DNA from: an uncultured Chloroflexia bacterium
GTDB lineage: Bacteria; Chloroflexota; Limnocylindria; QHBO01
Length of the DNA stretch: 64,000 bases
Reading direction: 5' to 3'
Assembly: GCA_963827475.1 (NCBI GenBank)
Contig: CAWHAZ010000004.1
Span: 96,001-160,000 of the forward strand
The notes under the pieces were generated by a model. The model worked only from the letters and a program-made list of their open reading frames with translations, made no database searches and was not told the origin of the DNA. Made by a program: the position numbers and the translations under genes. Below, piece after piece: positions 18,201 through 35,271 of the stretch (positions are counted from its first letter, which is position 1; each line of letters starts with the position of its first letter).

Positions 18201-18208
18201 AGCGGGGC

Positions 18209-18601: not shown

Positions 18602-18738
18602 GGTTCACCTCCTGGCGCCGAGTATGCGCGGCGAGAAGGCGCGCCGGAGGGACTGTCCGAGCACCGGCTGATACACTCTGAGCAGGAGAATCAATGCTGC
18701 GGACCGCTTCGAGTCCGCCCTGATCGAACGAGACGACG

Positions 18739-19098
18739 ATGGACCAAACCGGACTGCTCTACGTCCTGGGTTTCGGCTTCGCCGCGACGACCTTCGTCTT
18801 CGGCACGATCATCTTTTCGTGGCTCGTGTCGCACCGGCGCAAGCAGGCCCAGAAGGGGCTGCCCTACGAGTGCGGGATCGACACCATCGGTGACACCTGG
18901 TCCCGCTTCGGACTGGCGTTCTACCTGTACGCCCTGCTGTTCGTCGCCTTCGACGTCGAGATCATCTTCATCTACCTGTGGGCGATCGTGATCCGCGACA
19001 TCGCGGTCAACGGGATCGTGTTGATGGGCATCTTCCTGGTGGTCCTGATGTATGGCGAGTTCTACGCCTGGAGGAAGGGGGACCTGCAGTGGCGGTAG
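18739..19098 (+). CDS. nuoA: NADH-quinone oxidoreductase subunit A
   Basis: PYECG, FYLYALLFVAFDVE, YAWRKGDLQW. Confidence 0.95.
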   Translation: MDQTGLLYVLGFGFAATTFVFGTIIFSWLVSHRRKQAQKGLPYECGIDTIGDTWSRFGLAFYLYALLFVAFDVEIIFIYLWAIVIRDIAVNGIVLMGIFLVVLMYGEFYAWRKGDLQWR

Positions 19099-19790
19099 AG
19101 CAGCCGAAGCGCGCCAAAGCGGCCTCGGTCGCCAAGGCGGCCGCCGACCCCAAGGACGCCCCGCCGCCGAGCACCGCGCTCGCCAAGCCGGAGGCCATCG
19201 TCATCCCCGATCCCACGGGCGACGACGACCTCCTGTCCGAGTTCGGGATGGAGGCCCACCCGCGCGGCGGCTTCCACGGCCTGCTGGAGGTCATCCCGAC
19301 CAGGGCGGACTACATCCTCGACCTGATCCGGGCCAACTCCCTGTGGCCGCTCCTGTCGGGGCTGTCGTGCTGCGCCATCGAGATGATGAGCACCGCCACC
19401 CCGATGAACGACATGGACCGCTTCGGGATGTTTCCGATGCGCGCCTCGCCGCGCCAGGCGGACGTCCTGATCGTGGCCGGCACGCTGACGACCAAGATGG
19501 CCGGCCCCCTCGTCCGGCTGTGGGCACAGATGCCCGAGCCGAAGTGGTGCGTGGCGATGGGCACCTGCACGACCAGCGGCGGGCGCTTCAAGCGCTCGTA
19601 CAGCGTGGTCCAGGGCGTGGACCGGGTCATGCCCGTCGACGTCTACGTGCCGGGCTGCCCGCCCCGCCCCGAGGGCCTGATCTACGGAATGATGAAGCTC
19701 CACGAGCTGGTCAAGCAGCGTCGCGGCCAGTGGGACACGTTCGCCGACCGCGGACCGGAGCTCCGTTCCTGGGAAGGAGACGTCCGCTGA
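19089..19790 (+). CDS. nuoB: NADH-quinone oxidoreductase subunit B
   Basis: SLWP, GLSCCAIEM, RASPRQAD, QMPEPKW, MGTC, VYVPGCPPRPE. Confidence 0.96.
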   Translation: MAVEQPKRAKAASVAKAAADPKDAPPPSTALAKPEAIVIPDPTGDDDLLSEFGMEAHPRGGFHGLLEVIPTRADYILDLIRANSLWPLLSGLSCCAIEMMSTATPMNDMDRFGMFPMRASPRQADVLIVAGTLTTKMAGPLVRLWAQMPEPKWCVAMGTCTTSGGRFKRSYSVVQGVDRVMPVDVYVPGCPPRPEGLIYGMMKLHELVKQRRGQWDTFADRGPELRSWEGDVR

Positions 19791-20365
19791 CCGCTCCCGC
19801 CGCGGCGGGGCCACTCGTCCGGCTGCTCGGTGACAAGCTCGGCGACGCGACGAGCCAGCTGTGGACCGATGAGGACACGGTCGAGGTCCAGGTCCCCGGC
19901 GACAAGATCGTCGAGACCCTTCGGACGCTCCGCGACGACCCCGACTTCGCGTTCTTCTTCCTGGCCGATGCGGCCGCGGTCGACTACGGGGTGGGCGAGC
20001 ACTTCGAGGTCGTCTACCACCTGCACTCCGACAGGCACCCGGTGTGGCTTCGTGTCCGCGTCCCGGTCGACCGCGAGAACCCGCTGACCCCGACCGTCAC
20101 CGGGCTGTGGGAAGGGGCGATGTTCCACGAGCGCGAGATGTACGACATGATGGGCATCGTCTTCCAGGGCAACCGGGACCTGCGCCGGATCTACATGTCG
20201 CCCGACTACCGATCCTTCCCGCAGCGGAAGGATTTCCTGCTCCCCGATGACGCCGCCGACTCCCCGGCTGCCGGCAACATGCCCCTCGAGCGCCCCGAGA
20301 CCTGGGACCTGACCCGGCTCGAGGAAGCGGCCGCCCACCGTGACGAGCCCGGGGGGCCGGTGTGA
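19787..20365 (+). CDS. nuoC: NADH-quinone oxidoreductase subunit C
   Basis: AVDY, FEVVYHL, EREMYDMMGIVF, LRRI, PQRKDF; probable CTG start after AGGAG. Confidence 0.9.
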   Translation: MTAPAAAGPLVRLLGDKLGDATSQLWTDEDTVEVQVPGDKIVETLRTLRDDPDFAFFFLADAAAVDYGVGEHFEVVYHLHSDRHPVWLRVRVPVDRENPLTPTVTGLWEGAMFHEREMYDMMGIVFQGNRDLRRIYMSPDYRSFPQRKDFLLPDDAADSPAAGNMPLERPETWDLTRLEEAAAHRDEPGGPV

Positions 20366-21684
20366 CGACGACGAAGGAACCGCGGGCCCGCAAGCCCCGG
20401 GCCAAGGCTCCGCCGGAGGACGAGGCCGCTCTCCGGGCAGCCGCCGAGGGGCGGATTCCCGACCCGATCGAGCTCGACGCCACGATGACCAGCCCCGCGG
20501 GGACGCGACGCCCGGAGTTCATGGGCTTCGACATCGTCCCGCCGCCCGACCGCCCCCCGCAGACCGAGCGCGAGCGCGAGGTCTACACCCTCGGCGACGG
20601 GGAGATGCTGGTGAACATGGGCCCGCAGCACCCGTCGACCCACGGCGTGATGCGGATCGTGCTCAAGGTCCGCGGCGAGGTCGTCATCGACCTCGACCCG
20701 GTGCTCGGATACCTCCACCGCGGCATCGAGAAGCTGTGCGAGAACGCGACCTACACCACGGTCCTGACCTACGTCGACCCCATGGACTACATGTCGGCGA
20801 TGCACAACGAGCACGCGCCGGCGCTCGCCTTCGAGAAGCTGTACGGGATCAAGGCGCCGCGGCGGGCGGAGTACATCCGGGCCCTGGTGGTGGAGCTGAA
20901 CCGGGTGTTCAGCCACGGCCTGATGATGGGCTTCCTGGCCCTCGACCTCGGCGGCCTGACGCCGATCCTGTACGGGTTCATCAACCGCGACCAGGTCGTG
21001 GACATGCTGTCGGCGATCTCCGGCCAGCGGATGCTGTTCAACTTCTTCCGGGTCGGCGGGGTGAACTTCGACGTGAACGACGAGTTCCTGTCCCGCCTCG
21101 GGAAGTGGCGCGCGGGCGTGCTCGACACGATCGAGATGAACGAGAAGCTGCTCACCGAGAACGAGATCTTCGGGGCCCGGACCAAGAAGATGGGCGTGCT
21201 GACCGGCCAGCAGGCCATCGACCTGGGCGTGTCCGGCCCCAACCTGCGGGCCAGCGGCGTGCCGTTCGACGTCCGCAAGGCCCATCCGTACCCGCCCTAC
21301 CCCGAGCTCGAGTTCGAGGTCATCACCCAGGAAGGCGGCGACACCTACGCGCGGTACATCCAGCGCATCGCGGAGCTGAAGCAGAGCATCCACCTCATCG
21401 ACCAGATCGTCGACCGCATGCCCCACGGCCCGGTCCAGGCCCAGGTGCCGGGCATCATCCGGCCTAGGCCAGGGCGGGCATACGCGGCGGTGGAGTCGCC
21501 CCGGGGGCTGTACAGCGTCTACGCCATCAGCGACGGCGGCCCGAACCCGTATCGGTTCCGCATGCGCGACCCAAGCTTCATCACCCTCCAGGTCATGCCC
21601 AAGGTCATGCCGGGCCGCCTGATCGCCGACACCATGGCGGTGATGGCCAGCCTGGACCCGATCATGGGCGGCGTGGACAAGTAG
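20362..21684 (+). CDS. nuoD: NADH-quinone oxidoreductase subunit D
   Basis: NMGPQHPSTHGV, GYLHRGIEK, GPNLRASG, ESPRG, DPIMGGVDK; no NiFe CxxC motifs, so not a hydrogenase. Confidence 0.96.
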   Translation: MTTTKEPRARKPRAKAPPEDEAALRAAAEGRIPDPIELDATMTSPAGTRRPEFMGFDIVPPPDRPPQTEREREVYTLGDGEMLVNMGPQHPSTHGVMRIVLKVRGEVVIDLDPVLGYLHRGIEKLCENATYTTVLTYVDPMDYMSAMHNEHAPALAFEKLYGIKAPRRAEYIRALVVELNRVFSHGLMMGFLALDLGGLTPILYGFINRDQVVDMLSAISGQRMLFNFFRVGGVNFDVNDEFLSRLGKWRAGVLDTIEMNEKLLTENEIFGARTKKMGVLTGQQAIDLGVSGPNLRASGVPFDVRKAHPYPPYPELEFEVITQEGGDTYARYIQRIAELKQSIHLIDQIVDRMPHGPVQAQVPGIIRPRPGRAYAAVESPRGLYSVYAISDGGPNPYRFRMRDPSFITLQVMPKVMPGRLIADTMAVMASLDPIMGGVDK

Positions 21685-21702
21685 GCCGGACGAGGCGCCA
21701 CC

Positions 21703-22722
21703 ATGGACCAGGGCATGATCGACCTCATCCTTGGCATCGGCCGCTTCGTGGTCGCCACCACCCTGCTCCTGCTGCTCACGGTGCCGACCGCGTTCATCGT
21801 GATCCAGATGGAGATCAAGATCATCGCCCAGATGCAGCTGCGCTACGGCCCGAACCGGGTCGGGCCGCGGGGCATCTTCCAGAGCACGATCCACGGCTTC
21901 AAGTTCCTGGCCAAGGAGGACCAGACCCCGGATCGGGCGGACGTGCCGACGTTCACGCTGGCGCCGTGGATGGTGTTCATGGCCGCCGCCATGAGCCTGC
22001 TGGTCGTTCCCTTCGCGCCCGGCCTGGTGGCGTTCGACTCGCAGATCGGCGTCATCTACTTCTTCGCCGTCATCGGTCTGTCGGTGGTGGGGCTGCTGAT
22101 CGCCGGCTGGGCCAGCTACAACAAGTACTCGCTGCTCGGCGGGCTGCGGAGCGCGGCCCAGATGGTCAGCTATGAGATCCCGCTGACCCTGTCCATCGTG
22201 GGCGTGGTGGTCCTGACCGGGTCGCTGTCGTTCACCGAGATCGTGGAGTGGCAGCGCGAGCACGGGTGGGCGTTCCTGTGGCAGCTGGTCGGCTTCCCGA
22301 TCTTCCTCATTGCCGCCGCGGCGGAGATCAACCGCGCCCCGTTCGACATGATCGAGGCCGACAGCGAGATCGTCGCCGGCCCGTTCACCGAGTACAGCGG
22401 GATGCGGTTCGGGTTCTTCTTCTTCGCCGAGTACGTGGCCCTGTTCATCATGAGCGCCATCCTGGTCACCCTGTTCCTGGGCGGCTACCTCGCGCCGTGG
22501 CCGTTCCCCGCCACCCTCGACGGCTTCGTCGGAACCCTGTACGGCCTGTTCTGGTTCTTCGTGAAGACGTACTTCTTCGTCTTCGTCGCGGTCTGGGTGC
22601 GGGCCACCCTGCCGCGGGTCCGGGTTGACCAGCTGATGGGCGCGTCGTGGAAGGTGCTGCTCCCGCTGGCCCTCGTCAACCTGTTCCTCACGGCCATCGT
22701 CGTTCTCGCCCTCAACCTGTAA
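21703..22722 (+). CDS. nuoH: NADH-quinone oxidoreductase subunit H
   Basis: RYGPNRVG, NKYSLLGGLRSAAQMVSYE, AEINRAPFD, EYSG, RATLPRVR. Confidence 0.96.
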   Translation: MDQGMIDLILGIGRFVVATTLLLLLTVPTAFIVIQMEIKIIAQMQLRYGPNRVGPRGIFQSTIHGFKFLAKEDQTPDRADVPTFTLAPWMVFMAAAMSLLVVPFAPGLVAFDSQIGVIYFFAVIGLSVVGLLIAGWASYNKYSLLGGLRSAAQMVSYEIPLTLSIVGVVVLTGSLSFTEIVEWQREHGWAFLWQLVGFPIFLIAAAAEINRAPFDMIEADSEIVAGPFTEYSGMRFGFFFFAEYVALFIMSAILVTLFLGGYLAPWPFPATLDGFVGTLYGLFWFFVKTYFFVFVAVWVRATLPRVRVDQLMGASWKVLLPLALVNLFLTAIVVLALNL

Positions 22723-22732
22723 GGTTCGACCC

Positions 22733-23575
22733 ATGGCGATACCGGGCTCGGGCATGCTCACCGGCATGGGGGTGACCCTGCGGAACCTGTTCCGGCCCAA
22801 GGTGACGCTGCAGTACCCCGAGGAGCGGCCGCACATCCCCGACCGCTGGCGCGGGCGCCTGGACCTCATCTACGACCCGTTCGGCGAGCACAAATGCGAG
22901 GTCTGCTTCCAGTGCGCCCAGGTCTGCCCGGTCGAGGCCATCGACATGAGCGGGTTCGACAGCGAGGGCAACCGGATCCGATACGGCCTGCCGGAGATCT
23001 ACGACGAGCGGAAGGACCCCAATGCCTACCGTCGGGCCGGCCTGCCCGCTCGCCCGGAGCGCAACGCGGCCCGCTGGCAGGAGGACGTGGACAACGCCTG
23101 GGTCGACTCGGTGATCGACGGCTTCGGCGGCCGGCCCGAGTCGCTGGTCGCGATCTTCGGCGCGGTCCAGGCGAAGTACGGATACCTCCCCGAGCCGGCG
23201 TTGCGCCGGATCAGCGACCGGATGACGATCCACTGGGCCCAGGTCTTCGGCGCCGCCGGCCTGGGCGGGTTCCGGCTCCTGCCCGCCGAGGGCCACCTCG
23301 TGACCGTCTGCTCGTGCGCCGCCTGCCGCTTCGCCGGCGGGGACAGGCTCCTCGCCGCGCTCGAGGAGGAGCTCGGCATCCGGGCGGGCGAGGTGACCGA
23401 TGACGGGTCGTTCACCCTGGAGACCGATGCGAACGTGGGGTCGGGCGCGATCGCGCCGGCGGTCCGCATCGACACCCTGGTCTACGGGCCGCTCTCGGTG
23501 GACGAGGCGCGTCACCTGATCTACGCCCGCCGGGCCGAGGCAAGCCCAGCCGCCTCCGCCCCGGCCCGGGCCTGA
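22733..23575 (+). CDS. fusion of NuoI N-terminal half (one CxxCxxCxxxCP) to a degenerate NuoE/HydC thioredoxin-like domain
   Basis: VTLQYPEE..RWRG..CEVCFQCAQVCPVEAI, then VQAKYGYLP, VCSCAAC, LGIRAGEVTDDGSFTL, AP..YG. Confidence 0.85.
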   Translation: MAIPGSGMLTGMGVTLRNLFRPKVTLQYPEERPHIPDRWRGRLDLIYDPFGEHKCEVCFQCAQVCPVEAIDMSGFDSEGNRIRYGLPEIYDERKDPNAYRRAGLPARPERNAARWQEDVDNAWVDSVIDGFGGRPESLVAIFGAVQAKYGYLPEPALRRISDRMTIHWAQVFGAAGLGGFRLLPAEGHLVTVCSCAACRFAGGDRLLAALEEELGIRAGEVTDDGSFTLETDANVGSGAIAPAVRIDTLVYGPLSVDEARHLIYARRAEASPAASAPARA

Positions 23576-24939
23576 TGGCGGTCACCCTCTCCCCCCAGAT
23601 CCGGATCCTGGACGGGGGGCAGCAACGCCTCCTGAAGGGCATCGGGACCCTGGATCCCGGGTCGCTCGCCGCGTATCGCAAGGCCGGTGGCTACAAGGGT
23701 CTGACCCGGGCGGTGACCCAGCGGTCGCCGGACGAGGTCATCGGCGAGATGGCAGCCGCGCGTCTGCGGGGACGGGGTGGCGCCGGCTTCCCGGTCGCGG
23801 ACAAGTGGCGAGCCGCCCGATCGGCACCCGGCGACCGCAAGATCGTGGTCGCCAACCTGATGGGCGCCGACCCCACGTCCCTCGGCGACCGGACGCTGGC
23901 CGAGGGCAACCCGCATCTCGTCCTCGAGGGGGCGCTGATCGCCGCTGCCGCCGTCGGCGCCAGCGAGGCGATTCTCGCCGTCCGCCGCGACTGGACGCTG
24001 GCCATCGAGCGCCTGCGCGCCGCGGTGGCGGACGCGGAAGCGGCCCACCTGGCCGGCTACCTCATCCTCGGCACGGACGTCTCGGTATCGGTATCGGTCT
24101 GGGAAGGCTCCGGTGCCTACGTCGCCGGGGAGGAGACGGCCCTCATCCACGCCCTCCAGGGTGACCGCGGCATGCCGCTCATCCGGCCGCCCTACCCGGC
24201 CGAGCGCGGCCTGTGGGACGTGCCAACGGTCATCCACAACGCCGAGACGCTCGCCCACGTGGCCTGGATCGCCGGCCACTCGGCTGCGGAGTTCACGAAG
24301 GCCGGGACCGAGGCGGCGCCGGGCACCAAGCTGGTGACCGTCGCGGGTGCGGTGACGACGCCGGGCGTGGCCGAGGTGGCGCTGGGAACATCGGTCGAGA
24401 AGGTCATCAGCCTGGCTGGAGGCTCGACGGGGACGGTCAAGGCCGCGTTCATCGGCGGCCCCGGGGCTGGCGCCCTCGCCGCCGACGAGCTGTCCGCCAC
24501 CGCCTACGCGTACGACGAGCTGGCGGAGGTCGGCGGCCACATCGGCTCGGGAACGGTGCTGGTCACCGACGCCGGCACCTGCATGGTGGCCACCGCCCGC
24601 TTCCTGCTCGACTTCTCGGCCCGCGAGGCGTGCGGCAAGGCCGTTCCCTGCCGCATCGGCACCCGCCGCCTGGTAGAGGCCCTCGACCGGATCCTGGCCG
24701 CGACCCCACGCCCCAATGACCTGGTCCTGCTCCGCGAGCTGTCGGCGAAGATCGCGGACACCGCCCTGTGCCGCCTGGAATCGCTCGCTCCGCGGCCGAT
24801 GCTCACGACCCTCGATCGGTTCGCCGACGAGTACCGCGCCCACGCCGAACGCGGGGTGTGCCTCGCCGGCTCGTGCTCGACCGATGCGGTCCTGCCGCTG
24901 CTGACCCCGCTGGCCGAAGCCGTAGGATTGGACCGATGA
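23575..24939 (+). CDS. nuoF: NuoF/HydB-family flavoprotein subunit, degenerate
   Basis: LRGRGGAGFP, GNPHLVLEG, GAYVAGEETAL, PPYPAERGLW, EACGKAVPCRIG, FADEYRAH..CLAGSC; TGATG-coupled. Confidence 0.85.
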   Translation: MAVTLSPQIRILDGGQQRLLKGIGTLDPGSLAAYRKAGGYKGLTRAVTQRSPDEVIGEMAAARLRGRGGAGFPVADKWRAARSAPGDRKIVVANLMGADPTSLGDRTLAEGNPHLVLEGALIAAAAVGASEAILAVRRDWTLAIERLRAAVADAEAAHLAGYLILGTDVSVSVSVWEGSGAYVAGEETALIHALQGDRGMPLIRPPYPAERGLWDVPTVIHNAETLAHVAWIAGHSAAEFTKAGTEAAPGTKLVTVAGAVTTPGVAEVALGTSVEKVISLAGGSTGTVKAAFIGGPGAGALAADELSATAYAYDELAEVGGHIGSGTVLVTDAGTCMVATARFLLDFSAREACGKAVPCRIGTRRLVEALDRILAATPRPNDLVLLRELSAKIADTALCRLESLAPRPMLTTLDRFADEYRAHAERGVCLAGSCSTDAVLPLLTPLAEAVGLDR

Positions 24940-27320
24940 CCTTCGTCGGCAACGGCAATGGCAAGGGCAACGGCAAGGGCGCCGAGCACATGGAGGACTA
25001 CGCGCCGATCTGGCCGGTCGTCCCCGGCACCCGACCGATCACGGTCACGATCAACGGCCGCCAGGTCCAGGCCGAGGAGGGGCAGACCATCCTCCAGGCC
25101 TGCCGGGTGTTGGACATCGAGATCCCGACCCTGTGCTACGAGCCGAAGCTCTCGCCCTACGGGGCCTGCCGCATCTGCGTGGTCGAGGTCGAGGGCGAGG
25201 AGAACACGCCGATCTCGTGCGGGACGAAGGTCGCGGACGGGATGGTCATCACCACCCACTCGGAGCGGGTCATCGAAAACCGCCGCCTGGTGCTGGAGCT
25301 GATCTTCTCGGACCACGACGCGTACTGCCTGCCGCCGTGCCAGTTCAAGTGCCCGACCCGGGTCGACATCCCCGGCTACCTGAAGGCCAACGCGGAGGGC
25401 AACTGGGAAGAGGCGACCCGGATCCTGAAGCGGTCCCTGCCCTTCCCGGCCATCCTCGGCCGGGTCTGCCCCGCCCCGTGCGAGACCCACTGCCGGCGCG
25501 AGGAGGTCGACATCGCGATCGCCATCCGCGACTCGCATCGCTACTGCGCCGACCGCGTGCTCGAAGTCGACGCGCCAGCCCCCCTGCCGTGGCCGAAGGA
25601 GCCGCCCACCGGGCGGCGGGTCGCGGTGGTGGGCTCCGGACCGGCCGGGATGACGGTCGCGTACTACCTCCAGCTCCGCGGCCACCAGTGCGACGTGTTC
25701 GAGGCCGACCCGGAGCAGGGCGGCATGCTGCGCTACGGAATTCCCGAGTACCGCCTGCCGAAGGCGTGGATGGACCGCGAGCTGAACCACGTCTGGGAGC
25801 TGGGCGCCACGTTCCGGCCGAACATGCGGCTCGGGCGCGACTTCCACCTCGCGGACCTGCTCGACCAGGGCTACGACGCGGTGTTCGTGGGCACGGGCTG
25901 CTACAAGTCGAACGAGCTGGGCATCCCCAACGAGTTCGCGGACGGGACGGTCAACGCCCTCGAGAACCTCTACAACAGCACCCGCGGCGTCCCCGTCCCG
26001 CAGCTGAAGGGGGCGCGAGTGGTGGTCATCGGCGGTGGGTTCACCGCCATCGACTGCACACGGACCTCGCTCCGCCAGGGCGCGGAGGCGGTCACCATCG
26101 TCTATCGCCGCGACCTGAAGGACATGCCGTCGCAGGACGAGGTCCACGAGGCGATCGAAGAGGGCGCGACGGTCATCTTCCAGGCCGCACCGGTCCGCAT
26201 CGTGACCGACGCCAAGGGTCGGGTGACCGGGGTCGAGTTCCAGAAGATGCACCTCGGCGAGCCCGACGAGAAGGGTCGCCGCCGGCCGGAGCCGATGCCC
26301 GGCACCGAGTTCATCGTCGAGTGCGACACCGTGCTGGGGGCCATCGGCCAGGGTCCGGAGCTGAGCTGGGTCGACCTCGAGCCGGACGAGATCCGCGGCG
26401 GGCTGGAGGTCAGCCGCCAGGGTCGCCTGGTCGCCGACCCGAACACCTTCCGCACCGGCGTCCCTCAGGTTTTTGCCGCCGGCGACGTGAACCTCGGCGC
26501 CACGACCGTGGTCGAGGCCATCGGTGACGGCCGCCGCGCCTCGTATGCGATGGACTACTGGCTCCGTGGCCACGACCTCGATGACCCGCAGGTCCGCCGC
26601 ATCGTGTCCGAGCCCCAGCCCTCGTTCCTGACCATCGTGCCCTTCACCGACGACGTGAAGGAGCCCCAGGCGGTGATGGGCAAGAAGGGGCCGGAGGAGC
26701 GGAGCGACAACTTCGGGGAGTACGAGTACGGCTACACCCACGACCAGGCGATGGGCGAGGCGGCCCGCTGCCTGCAGTGCACGTGCGAGGCGATCGGCCA
26801 CTGCGACCTCCGCGAGGCGGCGATCGAGTACGAGACCACGCTGAACATGGCGATCGACGAGCGGTCGATCCAGGACAACCCGTACGTCGGCATCAACCAC
26901 GGCTACGGCCGGGACGAGACCCACTCGTTCATCCTCCGCGACTACAGCCGGTGCATCGACTGCGGCCGCTGCGCCCAGGTGTGCAAGGACATCGTGGGCG
27001 CCGGCTGCTACGACTTCATCGGCAAGGGCTTCGACTCATTGGTCACCACCGCGGACTTCGTCTCGCTGAACGAGACGCCGTGCGTGTCGTGCGGTCGGTG
27101 CGCGGAGACGTGCCCGGTCGGGGCCCTCATGCCGCGGCCGCGGATCCTGGAGACCTATCAGCTCGACGTCAGCCGCTGCATCTTCTGCGGCATCTGCGCC
27201 GACGCCTGCCCGTACGACGCGCTGCGCTGCGGCCCCGAGTTCGAGTTCAGCGAGTACCAGCGCGATCTGCCGATGCTCGACATCCTCGAGATGTCCGACC
27301 GGGAGCGGCCCACCCGCTAG
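24936..27320 (+). CDS. NuoG/HydA-type Fe-S module with inserted GltD/SudA/NfnB-like FAD-NAD(P)H domain and C-terminal NuoI half
   Basis: [2Fe-2S] IPTLC..GACRICVVE..SC; HDAYC; PCQFKCP; LGRVCPAPCE; GSGPAG; GGMLRYGIPEYRLP; GGGFTA; VYRR; AGD; EAARCLQC; CIDCGRCAQVC; CVSCGRCAETCP; YQLDVSRCIFCGICADACPYDAL..EFE. Confidence 0.88.
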   Translation: MTFVGNGNGKGNGKGAEHMEDYAPIWPVVPGTRPITVTINGRQVQAEEGQTILQACRVLDIEIPTLCYEPKLSPYGACRICVVEVEGEENTPISCGTKVADGMVITTHSERVIENRRLVLELIFSDHDAYCLPPCQFKCPTRVDIPGYLKANAEGNWEEATRILKRSLPFPAILGRVCPAPCETHCRREEVDIAIAIRDSHRYCADRVLEVDAPAPLPWPKEPPTGRRVAVVGSGPAGMTVAYYLQLRGHQCDVFEADPEQGGMLRYGIPEYRLPKAWMDRELNHVWELGATFRPNMRLGRDFHLADLLDQGYDAVFVGTGCYKSNELGIPNEFADGTVNALENLYNSTRGVPVPQLKGARVVVIGGGFTAIDCTRTSLRQGAEAVTIVYRRDLKDMPSQDEVHEAIEEGATVIFQAAPVRIVTDAKGRVTGVEFQKMHLGEPDEKGRRRPEPMPGTEFIVECDTVLGAIGQGPELSWVDLEPDEIRGGLEVSRQGRLVADPNTFRTGVPQVFAAGDVNLGATTVVEAIGDGRRASYAMDYWLRGHDLDDPQVRRIVSEPQPSFLTIVPFTDDVKEPQAVMGKKGPEERSDNFGEYEYGYTHDQAMGEAARCLQCTCEAIGHCDLREAAIEYETTLNMAIDERSIQDNPYVGINHGYGRDETHSFILRDYSRCIDCGRCAQVCKDIVGAGCYDFIGKGFDSLVTTADFVSLNETPCVSCGRCAETCPVGALMPRPRILETYQLDVSRCIFCGICADACPYDALRCGPEFEFSEYQRDLPMLDILEMSDRERPTR

Positions 27321-27766
27321 CCCGCGTCCGCGGCGCTCCGGGACGGTGTCGCGCGGTTGAACCCGAAGCGGAGGAGCCGGAACAGCAGGTAGCCGATCAG
27401 CGCGCCAACGACGTTCAGGAGGACGTCGTCCACGTCGGTCATCCGGTTCGGGATCCGCAGCTGGGCGAGCTCGATCGCGACGCTGAGCACGACCGCCACC
27501 AGCAGGACTCGGGCCCACCCGTTCATCGCCGGGAACGCGATCGGTCCGAGCAGACCGACCGGGAGCAGGAGCAGGAGGTTCCCGATCAGCTGGCCGGCCC
27601 AGAACGGGGACTCGAGGTTGTCGAGGTAGACCTGGATCGTCCGGAACAGGACGAAGTTGTCATCCACGATGAAGCCAGGCGGCGGTTCCACGGGCTGCAG
27701 GGTCATGAGCAGTCCAAGGGCCAACCACGCCGCCAGGAGCACGCCGGCGGTCACACGGGCAGTCAT
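27317..27766 (-). CDS. VanZ-family membrane protein
   Basis: GNLLLLLPVG, SVAIELAQ, RMTDVDDVLLNVVGA. Confidence 0.88.
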   Translation of the reverse strand: MTARVTAGVLLAAWLALGLLMTLQPVEPPPGFIVDDNFVLFRTIQVYLDNLESPFWAGQLIGNLLLLLPVGLLGPIAFPAMNGWARVLLVAVVLSVAIELAQLRIPNRMTDVDDVLLNVVGALIGYLLFRLLRFGFNRATPSRSAADAG

Positions 27767-27837
27767 CGGCCGCCCAGTCTGTCAGCCCCGGCGGTTTTCT
27801 GCCGATGCGGGGCGCCGGGCGGTATCCTCGGCGGCGC

Positions 27838-29084: not shown

Positions 29085-29113
29085 AATCGGGCTCGGCCTC
29101 CGGAGCGAGGCCC

Positions 29114-29656
29114 GTGAGCGCTCAGCCCGAACGGAGAGTCTCGGCTCTGGACATCTCGATCGTCCTCTTCGTGGTGCTCGCCGTCGGCGTCCTCGGCGGT
29201 GGCCTGGCGGCCGTGCTCCTGCGGAACGTCATTCATTCCGCGGTGGCCATGATGTTCTGCTTCGGCGCGCTCGCCGGGACCTACGCGCTGCTTGGCGCAC
29301 CGATCGTGGCGGCGGCACAGGTCCTGATCTACCTCGGCGCGATCAGCGTCCTGATCCTGTTCGCGATCATGCTCACCCAGGCTGGCGACGCGAACCTGCC
29401 CGCCCCATTCCAGCGCCAGGCGCCGGTGGCGGCGCTGGTCGCGCTCGGGATCGTGTTCCTTGTCGGCTGGGCCATCGTCAGCACCGACTGGCCGAACGCC
29501 ACCGTCGTGATCGCGGTTGACCTCAACAAGCTGGCGACCGCCATCTTCACCGACTACGCCCTGCCCTTCGAGATCGTGGCCTTCCTGCTGCTGGCCGCGA
29601 TCATCGGCGCCATCTACCTGGCCCGACGGCCCGAAGAAGACGAGCGGGCGAACTGA
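29114..29656 (+). CDS. nuoJ: NADH-quinone oxidoreductase subunit J
   Basis: RNVIHSA, AQVLIYLGAISVLILFAIML, YALPFEI; candidate own promoter TAGAAT at 29082. Confidence 0.94.
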   Translation: MSAQPERRVSALDISIVLFVVLAVGVLGGGLAAVLLRNVIHSAVAMMFCFGALAGTYALLGAPIVAAAQVLIYLGAISVLILFAIMLTQAGDANLPAPFQRQAPVAALVALGIVFLVGWAIVSTDWPNATVVIAVDLNKLATAIFTDYALPFEIVAFLLLAAIIGAIYLARRPEEDERAN

Positions 29657-29659
29657 CCG

Positions 29660-29968
29660 ATGGGCCTGCCCGCGTACCTGTTCCTCTCCCTGCTCCTGTT
29701 CGGGATCGGAGCCTTTGGGTTCCTCGCCCGGCGCAACGCGATCATGATGCTGATCTGCATCGAGTTGATGCTGAACGCGGTGAACCTCGCCCTCGTCGCG
29801 TTCAACGCGTTCGACTACGGCGCGACGAATGACGCGGGCGCGGTCTTCTCCCTCCTGATCATGGCCGTCGCCGCGGCCGAGGCGACGGTGGGGCTGGCGC
29901 TGGTCATCGCCATCATCCGGACCCGTCAGACCCCCGAGGTCGACGAGTACTCCGACCTCAAGGAGTGA
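29660..29968 (+). CDS. nuoK: NADH-quinone oxidoreductase subunit K
   Basis: RRNAI, IELMLNAVNL, VAAAEATVGLA. Confidence 0.96.
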   Translation: MGLPAYLFLSLLLFGIGAFGFLARRNAIMMLICIELMLNAVNLALVAFNAFDYGATNDAGAVFSLLIMAVAAAEATVGLALVIAIIRTRQTPEVDEYSDLKE

Positions 29969-29972
29969 TGCC

Positions 29973-32210
29973 CTGACACCGGAGCAGCTCATCCCACTCA
30001 TCCCGGCCCTGCCGCTCGTCGGCTTCCTGTTCGCGGTCCTCCTCGGGTCGCGTCTCGACCGCATTCCCGAGCACGGTGACCACGGGGATGGGCACGGAGC
30101 GGGGGCCGGCCACGACACCGGCGGAGACCCGCACGCGTCGCACGACGAGGCGGTGGACGAGTCCGCGTTCCGCACGATCCCGACCGAGGAGGAACAGCGC
30201 GAGACCTCGCCCCACCGGGGCCACGCCGACGACCTGGCCAACGCCAACGGGGCAGATGGGGTCATCCCGGACGAGCTGAACGACGGACGGGGCCAGCCCG
30301 GCCACGTCTCCCCGGGCGGGCCGCGACCGGTCTACCGCTCGTGGTGGGTCCCCGTGGCCCTTGTCGCGCTCATGTGGGCCGCGGCCATGGTCGTGTTCGG
30401 ATCGGTCATCTTCGACGGTGCCGAGTACCGGGTCACCGTCTACGAGTGGATCGTGTCCGGCGACTTCCGGGTCGAGATCACGTTCTTCGTCGACGCGCTC
30501 ACCGCGGTCCTGCTCCTGGTCGTCAGCACGGTCGGCCTCCTCGTCCACGTCTACTCCATCGGCTACATGGACGGCGACCGGAGCGTGTGGCGCTTCTTCG
30601 CCTACCTGAACCTGTTCATGTTCAGCATGCTGCTGCTGATCCTGGCCGACAATTTCCTGCTGCTGTACGTCGGCTGGGAAGCGGTGGGCCTGTGCTCGTA
30701 CCTGCTCATCGGCTACTGGTACAAGAAGCCCTCGGCCGCCGGGGCCGCCAAGAAGGCGTTCATCGTCAACCGGGTTGGCGACTTCGGATTCGGGCTCGGC
30801 GTGATCCTGATCTGGACGTTGCTCGGCACCCTCGCGTTCGAGGAGGTGTTCGCCGGTGTCGGCGGGCTGGAGGAGTGGCAGGTCACGCTCATCGCGCTGC
30901 TCCTGTTCGCGGGCGCGGTCGGCAAGTCCGCCCAGTTCCCGCTCCACGTCTGGCTTCCCGACGCGATGGAGGGGCCGACCCCGGTCAGCGCCCTGATCCA
31001 CGCCGCGACGATGGTCAACGCCGGCGTCTACCTGGTGGCGCGCTCGAACCCGATCTTCGCCGAGGCCCCGACCGCCATGGCGGTGGTCGCGGCCATCGGT
31101 GTCTTCACCGCCGTCCTGGCCGCGGCCATCGCGCTGACTCAGAACGACATCAAGAAGGTCCTCGCCTACTCGACCGTGAGCCAGCTGGCATACATGTTCT
31201 TCGGGCTGGGCATCGGGGCGTGGGTGGCGGCCATCTTCCACCTGCTGGCCCATGGCTTCTTCAAGGGCCTGCTGTTCATGGCGTCGGGATCGGTCATCCA
31301 TGGCGCCGGCGGCGAGCAGGACATGCAGCTCATGGGCGGGCTGCGGGAAAAGATGCGCTGGACCTACGTGACCATGGTCATCGGGTCGCTGGCCCTGGCC
31401 GGCATCCCGATCTTTGCCGGGTTCTTCAGCAAGGACGAGATCCTGTCGGAGGCGTTCCTGCGCGGCTACGGGGTCTACTGGCTGATCGGGATCGTCGTCG
31501 CGTTCATGACCGCGTTCTACACGTTCCGGATGATCTACCTCACCTTCCACCGATCCTGGCGCGGCCCGGCCGAGGCGTGGCACCACGTCCACGAGAGCGG
31601 ATGGACGATGGTCGTCCCGCTGGTCATCCTGGCCGTGCCCACCGCCCTGGCCGGCCTCCTGCTCGGCATTCCGCCCGAGAGTGGGGCCATCCACACCTGG
31701 CTCGAGGAGGTCTTCGCCGGAGCCGAGGCACTGGGAACGGGCATCCTCCCCGGCTCTATCGCCGCCGAGGCGCTCGAGCATGGTGAAGCCCACGCATTCG
31801 AGCTCTTCGGGCTCGGCGGCCTGCTGCTCCTCGTCGGCGCGGGCATGGGGGTCGGCGGCATCCTGCTCGCCCGCCGCTGGTACGTCCAGAACCCGGAGGC
31901 ACCGGTCCGCTTCGTCGAGCGCATCCCGTTCGGCCTGGGGCCGGGCATGTACCGCGCCAGCGTGAACAAGTACTACTTCGACGACCTGTACCAGCTCCTG
32001 TTCGCGCGGGGCGGCGTCCTCGTCTCGAACATGCTGTGGTGGTTCGACGTCAAGGTCATCGACGGGTTCGTCAACGGCACGGGCTCGGTAGCGGAGTGGA
32101 TCGGCGGGATCCTCCGCCGCCTCCAGACCGGGCGGGTCCAGAACTACGGGCTGGGCATCGCGGCCGGCCTGGTGATCGTCCTGCTGGTCTACGCCACGGT
32201 GGTCCGCTGA
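29973..32210 (+). CDS. nuoL: NADH-quinone oxidoreductase subunit L with long His/acidic insertion after TM1
   Basis: Frame is open back to LTPEQLIPLIPALPLVGFL (TM1); YSIGYM, GWEAVG, NRVGD, GKSAQFPLHVWLPDAMEGPTPVSALIHAATMV, DIKKVLAYST, LQTGRVQNY. Start is CTG 29973 or ATG 29968 with a lost C. Confidence 0.93.
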   Translation: MTPEQLIPLIPALPLVGFLFAVLLGSRLDRIPEHGDHGDGHGAGAGHDTGGDPHASHDEAVDESAFRTIPTEEEQRETSPHRGHADDLANANGADGVIPDELNDGRGQPGHVSPGGPRPVYRSWWVPVALVALMWAAAMVVFGSVIFDGAEYRVTVYEWIVSGDFRVEITFFVDALTAVLLLVVSTVGLLVHVYSIGYMDGDRSVWRFFAYLNLFMFSMLLLILADNFLLLYVGWEAVGLCSYLLIGYWYKKPSAAGAAKKAFIVNRVGDFGFGLGVILIWTLLGTLAFEEVFAGVGGLEEWQVTLIALLLFAGAVGKSAQFPLHVWLPDAMEGPTPVSALIHAATMVNAGVYLVARSNPIFAEAPTAMAVVAAIGVFTAVLAAAIALTQNDIKKVLAYSTVSQLAYMFFGLGIGAWVAAIFHLLAHGFFKGLLFMASGSVIHGAGGEQDMQLMGGLREKMRWTYVTMVIGSLALAGIPIFAGFFSKDEILSEAFLRGYGVYWLIGIVVAFMTAFYTFRMIYLTFHRSWRGPAEAWHHVHESGWTMVVPLVILAVPTALAGLLLGIPPESGAIHTWLEEVFAGAEALGTGILPGSIAAEALEHGEAHAFELFGLGGLLLLVGAGMGVGGILLARRWYVQNPEAPVRFVERIPFGLGPGMYRASVNKYYFDDLYQLLFARGGVLVSNMLWWFDVKVIDGFVNGTGSVAEWIGGILRRLQTGRVQNYGLGIAAGLVIVLLVYATVVR

Positions 32211-33751
32211 TGAGCGGCATCGACACCAGCGGCTTGCCCGTGCTGTCGCTGATCGTGTTCACCCCGCTCATCGGGGTCGCAGCGCTGCTGCTGATCCCCG
32301 GGCGGCGCCATCGGCTGATCCGCTGGGTGGCCCTCCTGGCGGCCCTCGCCAGCCTCGGCTTCAGCCTGCTCCTGCTCGGCTACGACCCGGCTGGTCCGGA
32401 GTTCCAGTTCCGCGAGGACATCCCGTGGATCGACGCCTTTGGCATCCGCTACACGCTCGGGGTGGACGGGATGAGCGCGGTCCTGATCCTGCTCACCACC
32501 GTCCTGAGCGTGGTCGCGATCCTCTACTCCTGGGACCCCATCCAGAACCGGATCAAGGAGTACTACGCCGCGATGCTGCTCCTGATGACCGGCATGCTCG
32601 GCGTGTTCGTCGCCCTCGACCTGTTCGTGTTCTACGTCTTCTGGGAGCTGAGCCTGATCCCGATGTACCTGGTCATCGGGATCTGGGGTGGGCCGAACCG
32701 GATCTACGCCACGGTCAAGTTCGTCATCTACACCCTGGTCGGCTCGCTGCTCATGCTGGTGGCCATCCTGGCCGTGGTCATCGCCCACGCCAACCTCGCG
32801 GGCGGGACGTTCACGTTCAGCTACGAGGCCCTGCGGGGCGTGCCGTACCCCGACCTCCTGCAGGCCGCGGCGTTCATCGCATTCGGCCTGGCGTTCGCCA
32901 TCAAGGTCCCCATGTGGCCGTTCCACACCTGGCTGCCCGATGCCCACGTCGAGGCGCCGACCGCCGGCTCGATCATCCTGGCCGGCGTCCTGCTCAAGCT
33001 CGGCGGCTACGGCTTCCTGCGGTTCTCCATCCCCCTGCTGCCCGACGCGGCCGCCAGCTTCGCGCCGATCATGATCGGCCTGGCGCTGATTGCGATCCTG
33101 TATGGGGCGCTGGTGGCCATGGTCCAGCCCGACCTCAAGAAGCTCATCGCCTACTCGAGCGTGTCGCACATGGGCTTCGTCATCCTCGGGGCGTTCGTCT
33201 TCAACCAGCAGGGGATGCAGGGGGCCATCTTCCAGATGGTCAGCCACGGGATCACGACCGGGGCCCTGTTCCTCCTGGTCGGGGTGATCTACGAGCGCAC
33301 CCACGATCGGATGATCGCCCACATGGGCGGGCTGAACGCCCGCCTGCCGGCCTACGCCGCCCTGTTCGGGCTGTTCACCTTCGCGTCCATCGGCTTGCCG
33401 GGGCTGGCCGGGTTCGTGGGCGAGTTCCTCGTCATGCTGGGAGCGTTCCAGTACTCGGGCTGGGTCGCGGCCTGGGCGATGCTGGTGGTCATCGCCAGTG
33501 CGGTCTACATGCTCTGGATGTTCCAGCGGGCGTTCTTCGCCGTCCCGTCGGACTGGATGCGACGGGCATGGAACGGCCTCCACGACCTGACCCGGATCGA
33601 GTGGCTGTCGCTCGCCCCGCTGGTCATCCTGGTCGTCGCCCTCGGCGTCTTCCCGATGCCGGTGCTGGAGGCCACCGCCGCCCCGGTGGAGCGGATACTC
33701 GACGTGGTGCAGTCGGCCGGCGGCCTGGACGCGGTGGCCTGGCCATGGTGA
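32210..33751 (+). CDS. nuoM: NADH-quinone oxidoreductase subunit M
   Basis: LGVDG, FWELSLIPMY, KVPMWPFHTWLPDAHVEAPT, LLKLG, AYSSVSHMG, GFVGEF; single copy. Confidence 0.96.
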   Translation: MSGIDTSGLPVLSLIVFTPLIGVAALLLIPGRRHRLIRWVALLAALASLGFSLLLLGYDPAGPEFQFREDIPWIDAFGIRYTLGVDGMSAVLILLTTVLSVVAILYSWDPIQNRIKEYYAAMLLLMTGMLGVFVALDLFVFYVFWELSLIPMYLVIGIWGGPNRIYATVKFVIYTLVGSLLMLVAILAVVIAHANLAGGTFTFSYEALRGVPYPDLLQAAAFIAFGLAFAIKVPMWPFHTWLPDAHVEAPTAGSIILAGVLLKLGGYGFLRFSIPLLPDAAASFAPIMIGLALIAILYGALVAMVQPDLKKLIAYSSVSHMGFVILGAFVFNQQGMQGAIFQMVSHGITTGALFLLVGVIYERTHDRMIAHMGGLNARLPAYAALFGLFTFASIGLPGLAGFVGEFLVMLGAFQYSGWVAAWAMLVVIASAVYMLWMFQRAFFAVPSDWMRRAWNGLHDLTRIEWLSLAPLVILVVALGVFPMPVLEATAAPVERILDVVQSAGGLDAVAWPW

Positions 33752-33779: not shown

Positions 33780-35261
33780 ATGAACGACCCGGCGAACCTG
33801 TTCCCGCTGCTCCCCGAGCTGGCGCTCGCCATCTCGATCCTGGTCGTCATCACCGTCGACCTGTTCCTGCCCCGCGAGCGGAAGTGGCTGCTGACCCCCA
33901 TCACCGCCCTCGGCCTGCTCGCCACTGCGGCCGCCATCGGGGTTGTGTGGAGCTCCCCTCCGGGCGCGGCCCTGGCCGGGATCTACACCGTCGACGAGCT
34001 TGCCCTGGTGCTCAAGCTGGCCGCGGTTGGCATCGGTCTGTTGTCCACCCTCTTCTCGCCGGGGTACCTCGTCGTCCGCCGCCTGCCCCTGGGCGAGTTC
34101 AACGCGATCCTCCTGTTCTCGACCCTCGGCATCTTCGTTCTGGCCAGCAGCGCGGACCTCATCACCCTGTTCCTCGGCCTGGAGCTGATGGTCATGCCGG
34201 CGTACCTCCTGGCCGCGTTCCACAAGACCGATCGGTTCAGCAACGAGGGCGGGTTGAAGTACTTCCTCCTCGGCTCGTTCGCCAGCGCCATCCTCCTGTT
34301 CGGGGTGGCGTGGACCTACGGCCTGACCGGGACGACCATCTTCAGCGAGATCGCGGAGGTCTTCGCCGGCGGCCTGATGAACGGGGCTGTGCTGGTGGCC
34401 CTCGCCTTCCTGACCGTGGGCGCGACCTTCAAGGTGGCCGCCGTCCCATTCCACTTCTGGACGCCGGACGCCTACCAGGGCGCCCCGACGCCGATCACCG
34501 GCTTCCTGTCTGTCGGCCCCAAGCTCGGCGCCTTTGCGCTGCTCCTCCGCCTGTTCGGCGAGGCGCTCGGCCCGCTTCGCGCCGACTGGCTCGACGTGTT
34601 CGTGATCCTGGCCGTGGTGACCATGACCTTCGGCAACGTCGTGGCCCTGACCCAGACCAACGTCAAGCGGATGCTCGCCTACTCGTCGATCGCCCACACC
34701 GGGTACATCCTGGCCGGGCTGGCCGCCTACGCGGCCGCGCCCACCGAGGCGATCGCGGTGCAGGCCGTGGAAGCGGTGGTCTTCTACCTGGTCGGCTACT
34801 CGGTCATGAACATCGCCGCCTTCGCTGTGGTCGGCATGCTCCAGCGTGACGTCCGCCGCTATGGTGGGCTGGCCTCGTTCGCCGGCCTCGCCTCCCGGCA
34901 GCCGGCCCTGGCCGCGGCCATGACCATCCTGCTCCTGTCACTGACCGGCATCCCGCCGACCGTCGGGTTCTTCGCCAAGCTCTACATCCTGCTGGCCACG
35001 GTCGATTCGGGGCTGGTGTGGCTGGCGATCGCCATCGCCCTCAACGCAGCCCTCGCCGCGTTCTACTACCTGCGGGTGGTGGTCTACATGTACATGCGCG
35101 ACCCGGAGGCGGAGCCGGCGGAAGTCGAGCGGTCCGGGGTCGGACGGCTGGCCCTCGTCCTGAGCGTGGCCGGCGTGATCCTGCTCGGCATCTTCCCCGG
35201 CTTCCTGCTCGGCTGGCTGCCGACCGAGTGGCTGACCGTGGGCCAGGGCATGCTCCGTTGA
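33780..35261 (+). CDS. nuoN: NADH-quinone oxidoreductase subunit N
   Basis: EGGLKYFLLG, FKVAAVPFHFWTPDAYQGAP, KRMLAYSSIAH, GIPPTVGFFAK, FYYLRVV. Confidence 0.96.
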   Translation: MNDPANLFPLLPELALAISILVVITVDLFLPRERKWLLTPITALGLLATAAAIGVVWSSPPGAALAGIYTVDELALVLKLAAVGIGLLSTLFSPGYLVVRRLPLGEFNAILLFSTLGIFVLASSADLITLFLGLELMVMPAYLLAAFHKTDRFSNEGGLKYFLLGSFASAILLFGVAWTYGLTGTTIFSEIAEVFAGGLMNGAVLVALAFLTVGATFKVAAVPFHFWTPDAYQGAPTPITGFLSVGPKLGAFALLLRLFGEALGPLRADWLDVFVILAVVTMTFGNVVALTQTNVKRMLAYSSIAHTGYILAGLAAYAAAPTEAIAVQAVEAVVFYLVGYSVMNIAAFAVVGMLQRDVRRYGGLASFAGLASRQPALAAAMTILLLSLTGIPPTVGFFAKLYILLATVDSGLVWLAIAIALNAALAAFYYLRVVVYMYMRDPEAEPAEVERSGVGRLALVLSVAGVILLGIFPGFLLGWLPTEWLTVGQGMLR

Positions 35262-35271
35262 GGCCGCTGCG

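Follow-up and report, generated by a model that had tools for sequence, protein, structure and literature searches.

A complex I operon in which NuoI is encoded as two halves at the ends of a three-gene NAD(P)H-oxidising module

The 64,000-nucleotide stretch of DNA from an uncultured soil bacterium of the Chloroflexia analysed here (the window, in whose positions all coordinates are given) carries on its plus strand the complex I region of the genome. There NuoI comes in two halves, one joined to the first and the other to the last protein of a three-gene module for NAD(P)H oxidation. An earlier note on this DNA had proposed that a three-gene electron-input cassette lies inside nuoI, and the 11-subunit gene order and the complementary NuoI pieces described below bear this out. 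The split is a genuine and conserved feature that very likely has a function. Neither chance nor an assembly effect accounts for it, because none of the eight cysteines in the two orphan motifs varies in the alignments and many independent assemblies show the same layout. Based on sequence comparisons, we favor a model, to which we assign a probability of about 0.78, in which a cassette of the Stn/NfnABC type splits NuoI, NuoI is rebuilt in trans from its halves, and NAD(P)H enters mainly at the third protein of the module.

NuoI divided between two proteins

The membrane and quinone modules of the complex are complete: nuoA, B, C, D, H, J, K, L, M and N are all intact, as judged from open reading frames (ORFs) and synteny. 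The operon follows the 11-subunit order nuoABCDH-I-JKLMN, with the three-gene cassette (P1, P2 and P3; Table 1) occupying the place of I. The gene after nuoH, P1, had been read in the earlier note as a NuoI start with one ferredoxin motif that continues into a NuoE-like domain, and profile searches agree on each point. Among the families listed for the N-terminal piece of P1 (aa 1-100), 15 of 17 are NuoI, NdhI or FpoI models, and BLASTP aligns P1 aa 8-81 with residues 6-86 of E. coli NuoI (E 2e-15). P1 holds a single CxxCxxCxxxCP motif, here called N (aa 55-66, 22895-22930; Cys55/58/61/65 and Pro66), whose cysteines are invariant in 16/16 aligned sequences.

The missing half of NuoI had been placed at the C-terminus of the NuoG-like protein downstream, and it does align there. 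The last 60 residues of P3 match positions 72-112 of the NuoI family model (NCBIfam TIGR01971; 1.2e-13), the seven best NCBIfam matches of this piece are all NuoI models, and BLASTP aligns it to E. coli NuoI as well. It contains motif C (aa 748-759, 27177-27212; C748/C751/C754/C758-P759) followed by a NuoI-type tail, and P3 stops 35 residues past the motif. The four cysteines of motif C are invariant in 8/8 aligned sequences. Together the N-half and the C-half span the NuoI profile, neither overlapping nor leaving a gap; in M. smegmatis NuoI (8e9g_I), P1 aa 9-90 correspond to residues 8-88 and the P3 tail to residues 84-127. The two CxxCxxCxxxCP motifs of a NuoI are thus both present, but on two chains, and no single polypeptide matches the whole model over its curated cut-off of 113.05 bits.

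The reading frames of P1, P2 and P3 are intact and, as the earlier note had it, translationally coupled: the stop of P1 overlaps the start of P2 in TGATG (23573-23577) and the stop of P2 overlaps the start of P3 in ATGA (24936-24939), while P1 begins 10 bases after the end of nuoH. The ORF list also offers P3 an upstream GTG at 24768; the ATG at 24936 is preferred here, since the P2 stop overlaps with it and alignments to relatives start nearby. The absence of an intact nuoI, first noted for the window, extends to the whole assembly (1.92 Mb, 7 contigs, 90% complete), where a six-frame search gave seven TIGR01971 matches, none over the cut-off, the best two being the halves in P1 and P3. The assembly has one nuoH, one NuoF-like gene and one NuoG-like gene, which is P3. 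This operon is the sole complex I operon of a small, high-GC genome.

The inserted module and the pairing of its cysteine motifs

The best solved relatives of P1, P2 and P3 all come from one set of enzymes, namely 9bov (chains C, B and A), StnABC (8oh5) and NfnABC (9n5u), which are Nfn-type members of the electron-bifurcating Bfu family. The earlier note had called the cassette HydC/HydB/HydA-like. The kinship to HydABC stands, but by its sequence the cassette is a transhydrogenase-type module of the Stn/NfnABC (Nfn-Bfu) kind, with a GltD domain, and a relative of HydABC rather than HydABC itself. In P3, aa ~132-545 align with NfnI, GltD and DPD chains. The NuoG model matches with positions 1-95 before this GltD-like domain and with positions 97-203 after it, which is the inserted-GltD layout described for StnC. 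Residues 33-758 of P3 align with residues 2-699 of 9bov_A (E 9e-169), and 8oh5_C and 9n5u_A align as well; the NCBIfam model PRK12814 matches at 3.1e-164, under its cut-off. The alignments to these large-subunit chains of 1172-1178 aa end near residue 700, and P3 has no FdhF/molybdopterin-like domain. Of the StnC/NfnA make-up, P3 therefore shows the 2Fe-2S domain, the inserted GltD and the 2x[4Fe-4S] domain but not the C-terminal FdhF-like domain. In 8/8 Limnocylindria sequences the motif cysteines of P3, the FAD-binding GxGxxG, the GGG of the second nucleotide fold and a YRR motif, which we take to be a marker of NADPH preference, are all invariant.

The other two proteins are less well preserved. 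The NuoE-like domain of P1, with 9bov_C, 8oh5_A (StnA) and 9n5u_C (NfnC) as its best solved relatives, keeps CxCxxC, while the second cysteine pair of its 2Fe-2S site is lost in 8/8 Limnocylindria sequences; that pair is present in the fusions of the Thermoleophilia type described below. P2 has the Pfam domains Complex1_51K, SLBB and NADH_4Fe-4S and no others. Because its alignments to 9bov_B and StnB span residues 105-527 of these 584-aa BfuB-type chains, P2 is without the N-terminal 2Fe-2S and C-terminal 2x[4Fe-4S] domains of BfuB. In its N3-type motif, A or T replaces the middle cysteine in 6/8 Limnocylindria sequences; loci L020 and L023 keep it. In the FMN pocket, CNADEGDPG is altered in 8/8 and NNVET in 7/8 (intact in L020), whereas both are intact in 3/3 Thermoleophilia nuo-type and 3/3 Stn-like loci; in two loci linked to pyruvate:ferredoxin oxidoreductase (Por) genes, CNADEGDPG is intact in both and NNVET in one, the other reading NNVES. 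The bifurcating apparatus is, by these residues and domains, lost in the Limnocylindria module, and the FMN pocket of P2 is eroded. The Bfu hallmarks of a BfuB with extra cluster domains at both ends and a BfuC with a 2Fe-2S cluster are accordingly absent from P2 and from Limnocylindria P1, respectively, and the former is present in the Thermoleophilia version. The earlier note's reading of a new input module is supported, with the refinement that in this lineage its NuoE- and NuoF-like parts lack some cofactor ligands and domains.

Between the genera of family f1, to which the genome belongs, identity is 86% for P3, 72% for P1 and 68% for P2. Within the genus, the ratio of non-synonymous to synonymous substitution rates (dN/dS; 11 genus-level loci, of which one, L015, belongs to the unpublished genome G016) ranges over 0.09-0.27 in the NuoI N-half, 0.03-0.21 in the linker, 0.11-0.21 in the NuoE-like domain and 0.10-0.22 in P2. 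These low values indicate that P2 and the NuoE-like domain are maintained and are not mere relics. Family f2 has a shortened NuoE-like domain in its P1 (239 aa in total). In seven genomes of family f3 (G399, G329, G249, G407, G375, G289 and G359), P1 matches stop at query residue 161-192, and four of them have open frames of ~199-241 aa (G329, G249, G407 and G375, with G359 in part), which suggests repeated shortening of this domain in f3.

P1 and P3 contain four full cysteine motifs between them, N in P1 and A, B and C in P3 (from aa 673, 716 and 748). We favor a pairing of A with B and of N with C, because the alignment of P3 runs unbroken through motif B to 9bov_A and to StnC (8oh5_C, E 9e-148), because the A+B piece and the C piece match different profiles, and because N and C would be the ancestral partners within NuoI. 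In 9bov_A and 8oh5_C, A and B are the sole two such motifs and a molybdopterin-type domain follows them. The best NCBIfam matches of the A+B piece are FeFe hydrogenase A6 (3.9e-18) and HoxU (2.5e-12), with NuoI at just 5e-6, as against a NuoI match of 1.2e-13 for the C piece. The NuoI C-half begins 20 residues after motif B.

A different arrangement, in which B and C form a complete ferredoxin- or NuoI-like domain within P3 and the P1 motif pairs with A or holds one cluster alone, would leave NuoI essentially whole at the end of P3 and reduce P1 to a docking segment. Several alignments weigh on its side and against our pairing. The Pfam dicluster models Fer4_7 (1.4e-11) and Fer4_9 take B and C as one unit (aa 772-818 of the long, GTG-start P3 ORF), and the same match recurs in Thermoleophilia P3; BLASTP places P3 aa 713-776, with both motifs and a 7-residue gap, on residues 57-127 of E. 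coli NuoI (E 5e-17), and phmmer places B and C on residues 56-128. Taken alone, then, the sequence allows intramolecular pairing of B with C, and the 20-residue spacer between them is a usual one for ferredoxin motifs. We nevertheless regard this arrangement as unlikely. It would break two ancestral pairings simultaneously; the solved homologues have A and B together in a single domain; P1 and the P3 tail complement each other in their NuoI profile coordinates; and motifs N and C always co-occur and are never found in Stn-like relatives.

Distribution among relatives and surroundings of the operon

The families f1 to f4 belong to a class that is probably Limnocylindria. With P1 as query, matches were found in 37 of 41 relatives (a count that takes in the unpublished genomes G016 and G021, which are never the sole basis of a claim), the four without a match being 71-80% complete. 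An even sample of 401 genomes of the phylum yielded the full-length fusion in all 44 genomes of three families: f1 (17/17, own genome included), f3 (23/23) and f4 (4/4). The two f2 genomes fell under the E cut-off of that search (0/2), and outside the class the matches listed start at P1 residue 95 at the earliest, which is the NuoE-like part only. The order nuoABCDH-P1-P2-P3-JKLMN is kept in 6/6 of the f1, f3 and f4 loci examined by tblastn. At E <= 1e-5, 545 database proteins match P1, and its near-identical relatives among them, whose names point to Candidatus Limnocylindria, are annotated just as 'NAD(P)H-dependent oxidoreductase subunit E'.

Family f2 departs from this order in having two loci, nuoB-nuoD-P1-P2-P3 and nuoA-C-H-J-K-L-M-N (L023 on G025:C9, 4376-10624; L109 on G025:C37, 6692-14339; L110 on G027:C33), and here the halves do not lie between nuoH and nuoJ. 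The H-J junction is ~190 bases long with no nuoI in between, and since f2 keeps both halves in the P1-P2-P3 locus, the halves travel with the module. We considered that nuoB-nuoD-P1-P2-P3 might encode a soluble enzyme and rejected it, as the same genomes have a matching nuoA-C-H-J-N locus without nuoB, D and I. One f2 genome, G025 (91% complete), has the halves only. Another, G039, also has a canonical intact nuoI; because a second nuoH adjoins it, this gene is what a second, canonical operon would be expected to contain.

The split is not confined to one phylum. A search of 1.84 billion representative proteins returned 24 matches at E <= 1e-30, plus remoter full-length fusions with intact NuoE cysteines. 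With one of these remote fusions as query, a species-level genome search kept 80 loci, 42 of them matching from residue 1; these are nearly all Thermoleophilia or Actinomycetota metagenome-assembled genomes, with one 3.8-kb contig labelled Deltaproteobacteria. In Thermoleophilia the order nuoABCDH-P1-P2-P3-JKLMN was found in 5/5 loci examined, with P3 reaching the NuoI tail. Their P2 is a complete BfuB of 641 aa, including the N-terminal 2Fe-2S domain and the C-terminal dicluster, and their P1 keeps its cluster ligands. Among three Thermoleophilia genomes, G427 and G428 have an intact NuoI over the cut-off elsewhere and G429, whose 1.8 Mb read as a single contig, has the halves only. In some species (G427, G428 and G039), canonical and split-type complex I are present side by side.

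These distributions bear on two other explanations of the split. The halves could be relics while a complete NuoI encoded elsewhere serves the complex, a reading that the incompleteness of our genome and the intact NuoI of G039, G427 and G428 might seem to encourage. We consider it very improbable. No intact NuoI was found in our genome, in G025 or in G429, and among the f1, f3 and f4 genomes listed P1 as query gave no extra NuoI-N-like match; the intact nuoI of G039 is the one beside a second nuoH; the H-J junction of f2 lacks nuoI; and the eight orphan-motif cysteines are invariant, with dN/dS of ~0.1-0.2. The earlier note had said that its reading would fall if a complete nuoI were present elsewhere and the halves were not conserved; none was found, and relatives keep the halves. 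The split could also be an assembly chimera or a frameshift artefact, since the window comes from a metagenome-type assembly. We found no supporting evidence for this, and the chance of it is negligible given the recurrence of the fusions in the Limnocylindria and Thermoleophilia genomes counted above, the 545 database matches and a contig from a DNA run that spans 22955-23753.

Thermoleophilia also carry a paralogue in a cluster of Por genes, in the order porG-porD-porA-[P1-like]-[BfuB]-[P3-like fused to PorB (TPP_enzyme_C)] (L085, 6725-14905; also L074, L093, L095 and L100). Its P1-like protein has one N-terminal cysteine motif, that is, a half-ferredoxin, and motif C of its P3-like protein matches NuoI positions 69-119. 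A split PorD was rejected as the source of this unit, because porD is intact in the cluster and the NuoI model matches the C-half. In L100, motif B is a variant. The earlier note had asked whether the two fusions co-occur, and they do: motifs N and C are found together in 18/18 assessable split-type loci from four gene contexts (Limnocylindria nuo-type, 7; f2, 1; Thermoleophilia nuo-type, 5 of 7; Por-type, 5 of 6), with L046 and L059 (nuo-type) and L077 (Por-type) not assessable. In the Stn-like outgroup, motif N occurs in 0/10 NuoE-like subunits and motif C in 0/9 large subunits. A quick maximum-likelihood tree of P3 (27 rows; L046, L059, L076 and L077 left out) has four well-supported clades: Limnocylindria with f2 as sister, Thermoleophilia nuo-type, Thermoleophilia Por-type and Stn-like. 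The order among the four is unresolved and long branches are flagged, so we draw no donor or direction of transfer from it.

Around the module, the nuoB translation has a CC...C...C pattern, which we take to be the one expected for cluster N2, and no NiFe cysteine motifs were seen in the nuoD translation. The nuoD ORF (20362-20560) and the nuoB ORF, if read from 18978 (to 19230), start with long Ala/Pro/Lys/Arg-rich stretches that are unaligned to relatives from other families (tblastn alignments begin at NuoD residue 19-81), and the true starts are uncertain. Between P3 and nuoJ lie three unrelated genes in a 1.8-kb stretch (27317-29084). The corresponding distance is ~200-370 bases in f3 and f4 relatives and the gap is ~1.5 kb in the other f1 genus; because the gap occurs in both f1 genera, the complex I operon of this family is probably cut into two transcription units. 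A scan of 18000-36000 gave no promoter-like sites and two terminator-like sites, fewer than in shuffles, and Rfam and tRNA scans of the window gave 0 matches. Contigs from sequencing runs over the region are short and come from related strains, and two runs of RNA libraries and two of DNA each cover 30/30 bins.

Table 1. Genes and domains of the complex I region and its neighbours
Feature	Position	Strand	Basis or remark
nuoA	18739..19098	+	ORF; operon head kept in relatives (tblastn)
nuoB	19230..19790	+	Start uncertain, ORF from 18978; 77-91% identity to relatives (tblastn)
nuoC	19787..20365	+	Start approximate; tblastn synteny
nuoD	20362..21684	+	NuoD type; ORF and tblastn synteny
nuoH	21703..22722	+	Pfam NADHdh 4.2e-111
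P1, NuoI N-half fused to NuoE-like domain	22733..23575	+	280 aa
NuoI N-half in P1	22763..22984	+	aa 11-84; TIGR01971 positions 1-73, E 3.9e-17, 62.0 bits
NuoE-like thioredoxin-fold domain of P1	23105..23521	+	aa 125-263; Pfam PF01257 (2Fe-2S_thioredx, NuoE/HoxE type) 1.2e-23
P2, NuoF/BfuB-like flavoprotein core	23575..24939	+	454 aa
P3, 2Fe-2S (NuoG N-terminus), GltD FAD/NADPH, HydA/HoxU-type 2x[4Fe-4S] and NuoI C-half	24936..27320	+	794 aa
Fer2_4 (NuoG/HydA-type 2Fe-2S) domain of P3	25032..25262	+	Pfam PF13510 1.3e-22
GltD-like domain of P3 (two 4Fe-4S sites, FAD and NAD(P)H folds)	25329..26570	+	Pfam Fer4_20, Pyr_redox_2
Motifs A (aa 673-683) and B (aa 716-727) of P3	26952..27116	+	HydA/HoxU/StnC-type 2x[4Fe-4S] domain
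NuoI C-half at P3 end	27141..27266	+	Stretch matched in six-frame genome search, TIGR01971 positions 71-112; last 60 aa of P3, positions 72-112, E 1.2e-13, 50.7 bits
VanZ-like gene	27317-27766	-	Gene end abuts P3 stop
PAS-domain gene	27805-28254		Between P3 and nuoJ
Metallo-beta-lactamase-fold gene	28251-29084		Between P3 and nuoJ
nuoJ	29114..29656	+	Pfam Oxidored_q3 8.6e-34
nuoK	29660..29968	+	ORF and tblastn synteny
nuoL	30153..32210	+	ORF and tblastn synteny
nuoM	32213..33751	+	Start approximate; ORF and tblastn synteny
nuoN	33780..35261	+	ORF and tblastn synteny

Proposed assembly and comparison with known systems

How the divided NuoI might work can be pictured as follows. We envision that insertion of a three-gene cassette of the Stn/NfnABC family inside nuoI would have left NuoI as two halves: an N-half, consisting of the docking segment and the first CxxCxxCxxxCP, at the N-terminus of P1, and a C-half, consisting of the second motif and the tail, at the C-terminus of P3. 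The halves would fold into one 2x[4Fe-4S] NuoI domain in which both chains contribute cysteines to cluster N6a as well as to cluster N6b. This rebuilt domain would anchor the module on NuoB, NuoD and NuoH and would serve as the wire from the clusters of P3 to N2 and menaquinone.

In Stn, according to PMC10482914, NADPH is oxidised at the GltD FAD of StnC and electrons run along the StnC clusters to the bifurcating StnAB core, while a branch into the FdhF-like domain is a non-functional remnant. We propose that here the equivalent branch does conduct, leading electrons on to NuoI, N2 and quinone. The FAD of P3 would be reduced by NAD(P)H, probably NADPH, and electrons would pass through the GltD clusters, the NuoG-type clusters, the A/B domain, N6a/N6b and N2 to menaquinone, with the membrane arm presumably pumping protons as usual. 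We place the oxidation of NAD(P)H mainly at P3 because the bifurcating features are gone, the FMN pocket of P2 is eroded and the FAD/NAD(P)H domain of P3 is best kept. P2 and the NuoE-like domain of P1 would then be chiefly scaffold, or a modified second entry.

Several observations weigh against parts of this model. Each half singly scores below the NuoI cut-off (62 and 50.7 versus 113 bits), and the genome is just 90% complete. Purifying selection on P2 and the NuoE-like domain is as strong as on the NuoI half, and P2 may still oxidise NADH. The probable preference for NADPH is read from the YRR motif, a presumed marker of it. The genome encodes a PntB-type subunit of the membrane transhydrogenase (G000:C7:104195-105562), so that a direct route from NADPH to the chain is not needed for redox balance; the presence of PntB does not discriminate between use of NADH and of NADPH. 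RNA support is weak, consisting just of short contigs from metatranscriptome libraries, which show neither transcription nor the B-to-C junction.

It might also be supposed that P1-P2-P3 is a soluble transhydrogenase like Stn or Nfn that merely sits inside the operon, unattached to complex I. Its closest solved relatives are indeed soluble enzymes, and the Thermoleophilia paralogue is linked to Por genes rather than to nuo genes. The complex would then have no NuoI whatsoever, however, and P1 retains the NuoI N-terminal segment that precedes the first motif. In P3, moreover, the NuoI tail replaces the FdhF-like domain of StnC, which PMC10482914 describes as the mediator of the Stn tetramer, and bifurcating parts needed for a transhydrogenase of the Stn type are missing. 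We therefore give little credence to this reading and retain the model of a module docked through a two-chain NuoI.

A broader reading, which we offer tentatively and hold to be somewhat less likely true than false as a whole, joins three proposals. The operon would encode a proton-pumping NADPH:menaquinone oxidoreductase, in which electrons enter complex I at a GltD-type FAD site and reach N2 via a NuoI made of two polypeptides. The Thermoleophilia form, with its complete Bfu core, would couple NADH, NADPH and ferredoxin to quinone reduction by confurcation. Finally, because both halves also occur in the Por cluster, the split ferredoxin unit could be a portable docking plug.

Descriptions of complex I usually give it fixed core subunits, its known variation lying in the attached input module and in fusions of NuoC, NuoD and NuoB. 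A natural cut through a core electron-transfer subunit, with two clusters each held by two proteins, is a different kind of variation, and if our model is true it shows how one insertion can weld a soluble redox module onto a pump. Entire lineages of bacteria common in soil and freshwater (Limnocylindria and Thermoleophilia) carry the split form; should their only complex I take NADPH or several donors, models of their energy metabolism would have to be revised. Protein engineers, too, may take an interest in a 2x[4Fe-4S] domain that is split in nature. We know of no natural split of NuoI, and no description of a split or fused NuoI was found in the literature searched.

Canonical NuoI (Nqo9/TYKY/NDUFS8; 7awt_I, 2fug_9, 8e9g_I) shares with the two halves its N-terminal segment, two CxxCxxCxxxCP motifs, C-terminal tail and position between nuoH and nuoJ. 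Here, in contrast, the sequence breaks after profile position ~72 into two pieces on separate chains, and each piece is joined to a further redox protein. Canonical 14-subunit complex I likewise has separate NuoE, NuoF, NuoG (with a molybdopterin-like domain) and NuoI, whereas in the window the NuoG model is confined to its positions 1-95 and 97-203 in P3, NuoE is fused and missing some cluster ligands, and NuoI is split.

With StnABC of Sporomusa ovata (8oh5; PMC10482914) and NfnABC/Nfn-Bfu (9n5u, and 9bov by subunit architecture), the module shares the three-subunit gene order and its NuoE-like, NuoF/HydB-like and large 2Fe-2S + inserted GltD + 2x[4Fe-4S] subunits (E 1e-20 to 1e-169). These enzymes are soluble, and their large subunit ends in an inactive FdhF-like domain where P3 ends in a NuoI half. 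Their NuoE-like subunit, unlike P1, has no ferredoxin half (0/10 outgroup loci), and their B subunit has the extra 2Fe-2S and 2x[4Fe-4S] domains, with motifs intact, that P2 lacks.

The main text of Schut et al. 2022 (PMC9304861) predicts that Nuo-Bfu and Mbh-Bfu are membrane-bound, with BfuABC mid-cluster as a proposed replacement of NuoEFG. What the window shares with them is a cluster related to complex I or Mbh that has a proposed input module of this kind at its centre. As presented there, they have 14 subunits, A-N, and occur in Deferribacteres, Proteobacteria, Planctomycetes and Nitrospirae, and the module in the window lies outside the Bfu core as that text defines it. The words 'split', 'NuoI', 'Actinobacteria' and 'glutamate synthase' occur 0 times in the main text; the figures and supplements of that paper might show related clusters. 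The passages found of a 2025 survey of complex I variants (PMC12361115) give CD and BCD fusions only, and 'NuoI' is absent from the survey.

The 11-subunit operons without an N-module (Moparthi and Hagerhall 2011, PMC3144371; NUO11 of Degli Esposti 2015, PMC4758237) have the same backbone, nuoA-B-C-D-H-(I)-J-K-L-M-N, and likewise no separate nuoE, F and G before nuoH; the difference is that in the window an input module is present, inside nuoI. In mbx-like operons, Degli Esposti 2015 mentions, a gltD-related flavoprotein replaces NuoI, an arrangement that differs from a split NuoI. Plugging a new input into the pump by way of a split NuoI is apparently undescribed. Set beside these systems, the feature is a complex I with an alternative input module, unusual for its split core subunit.

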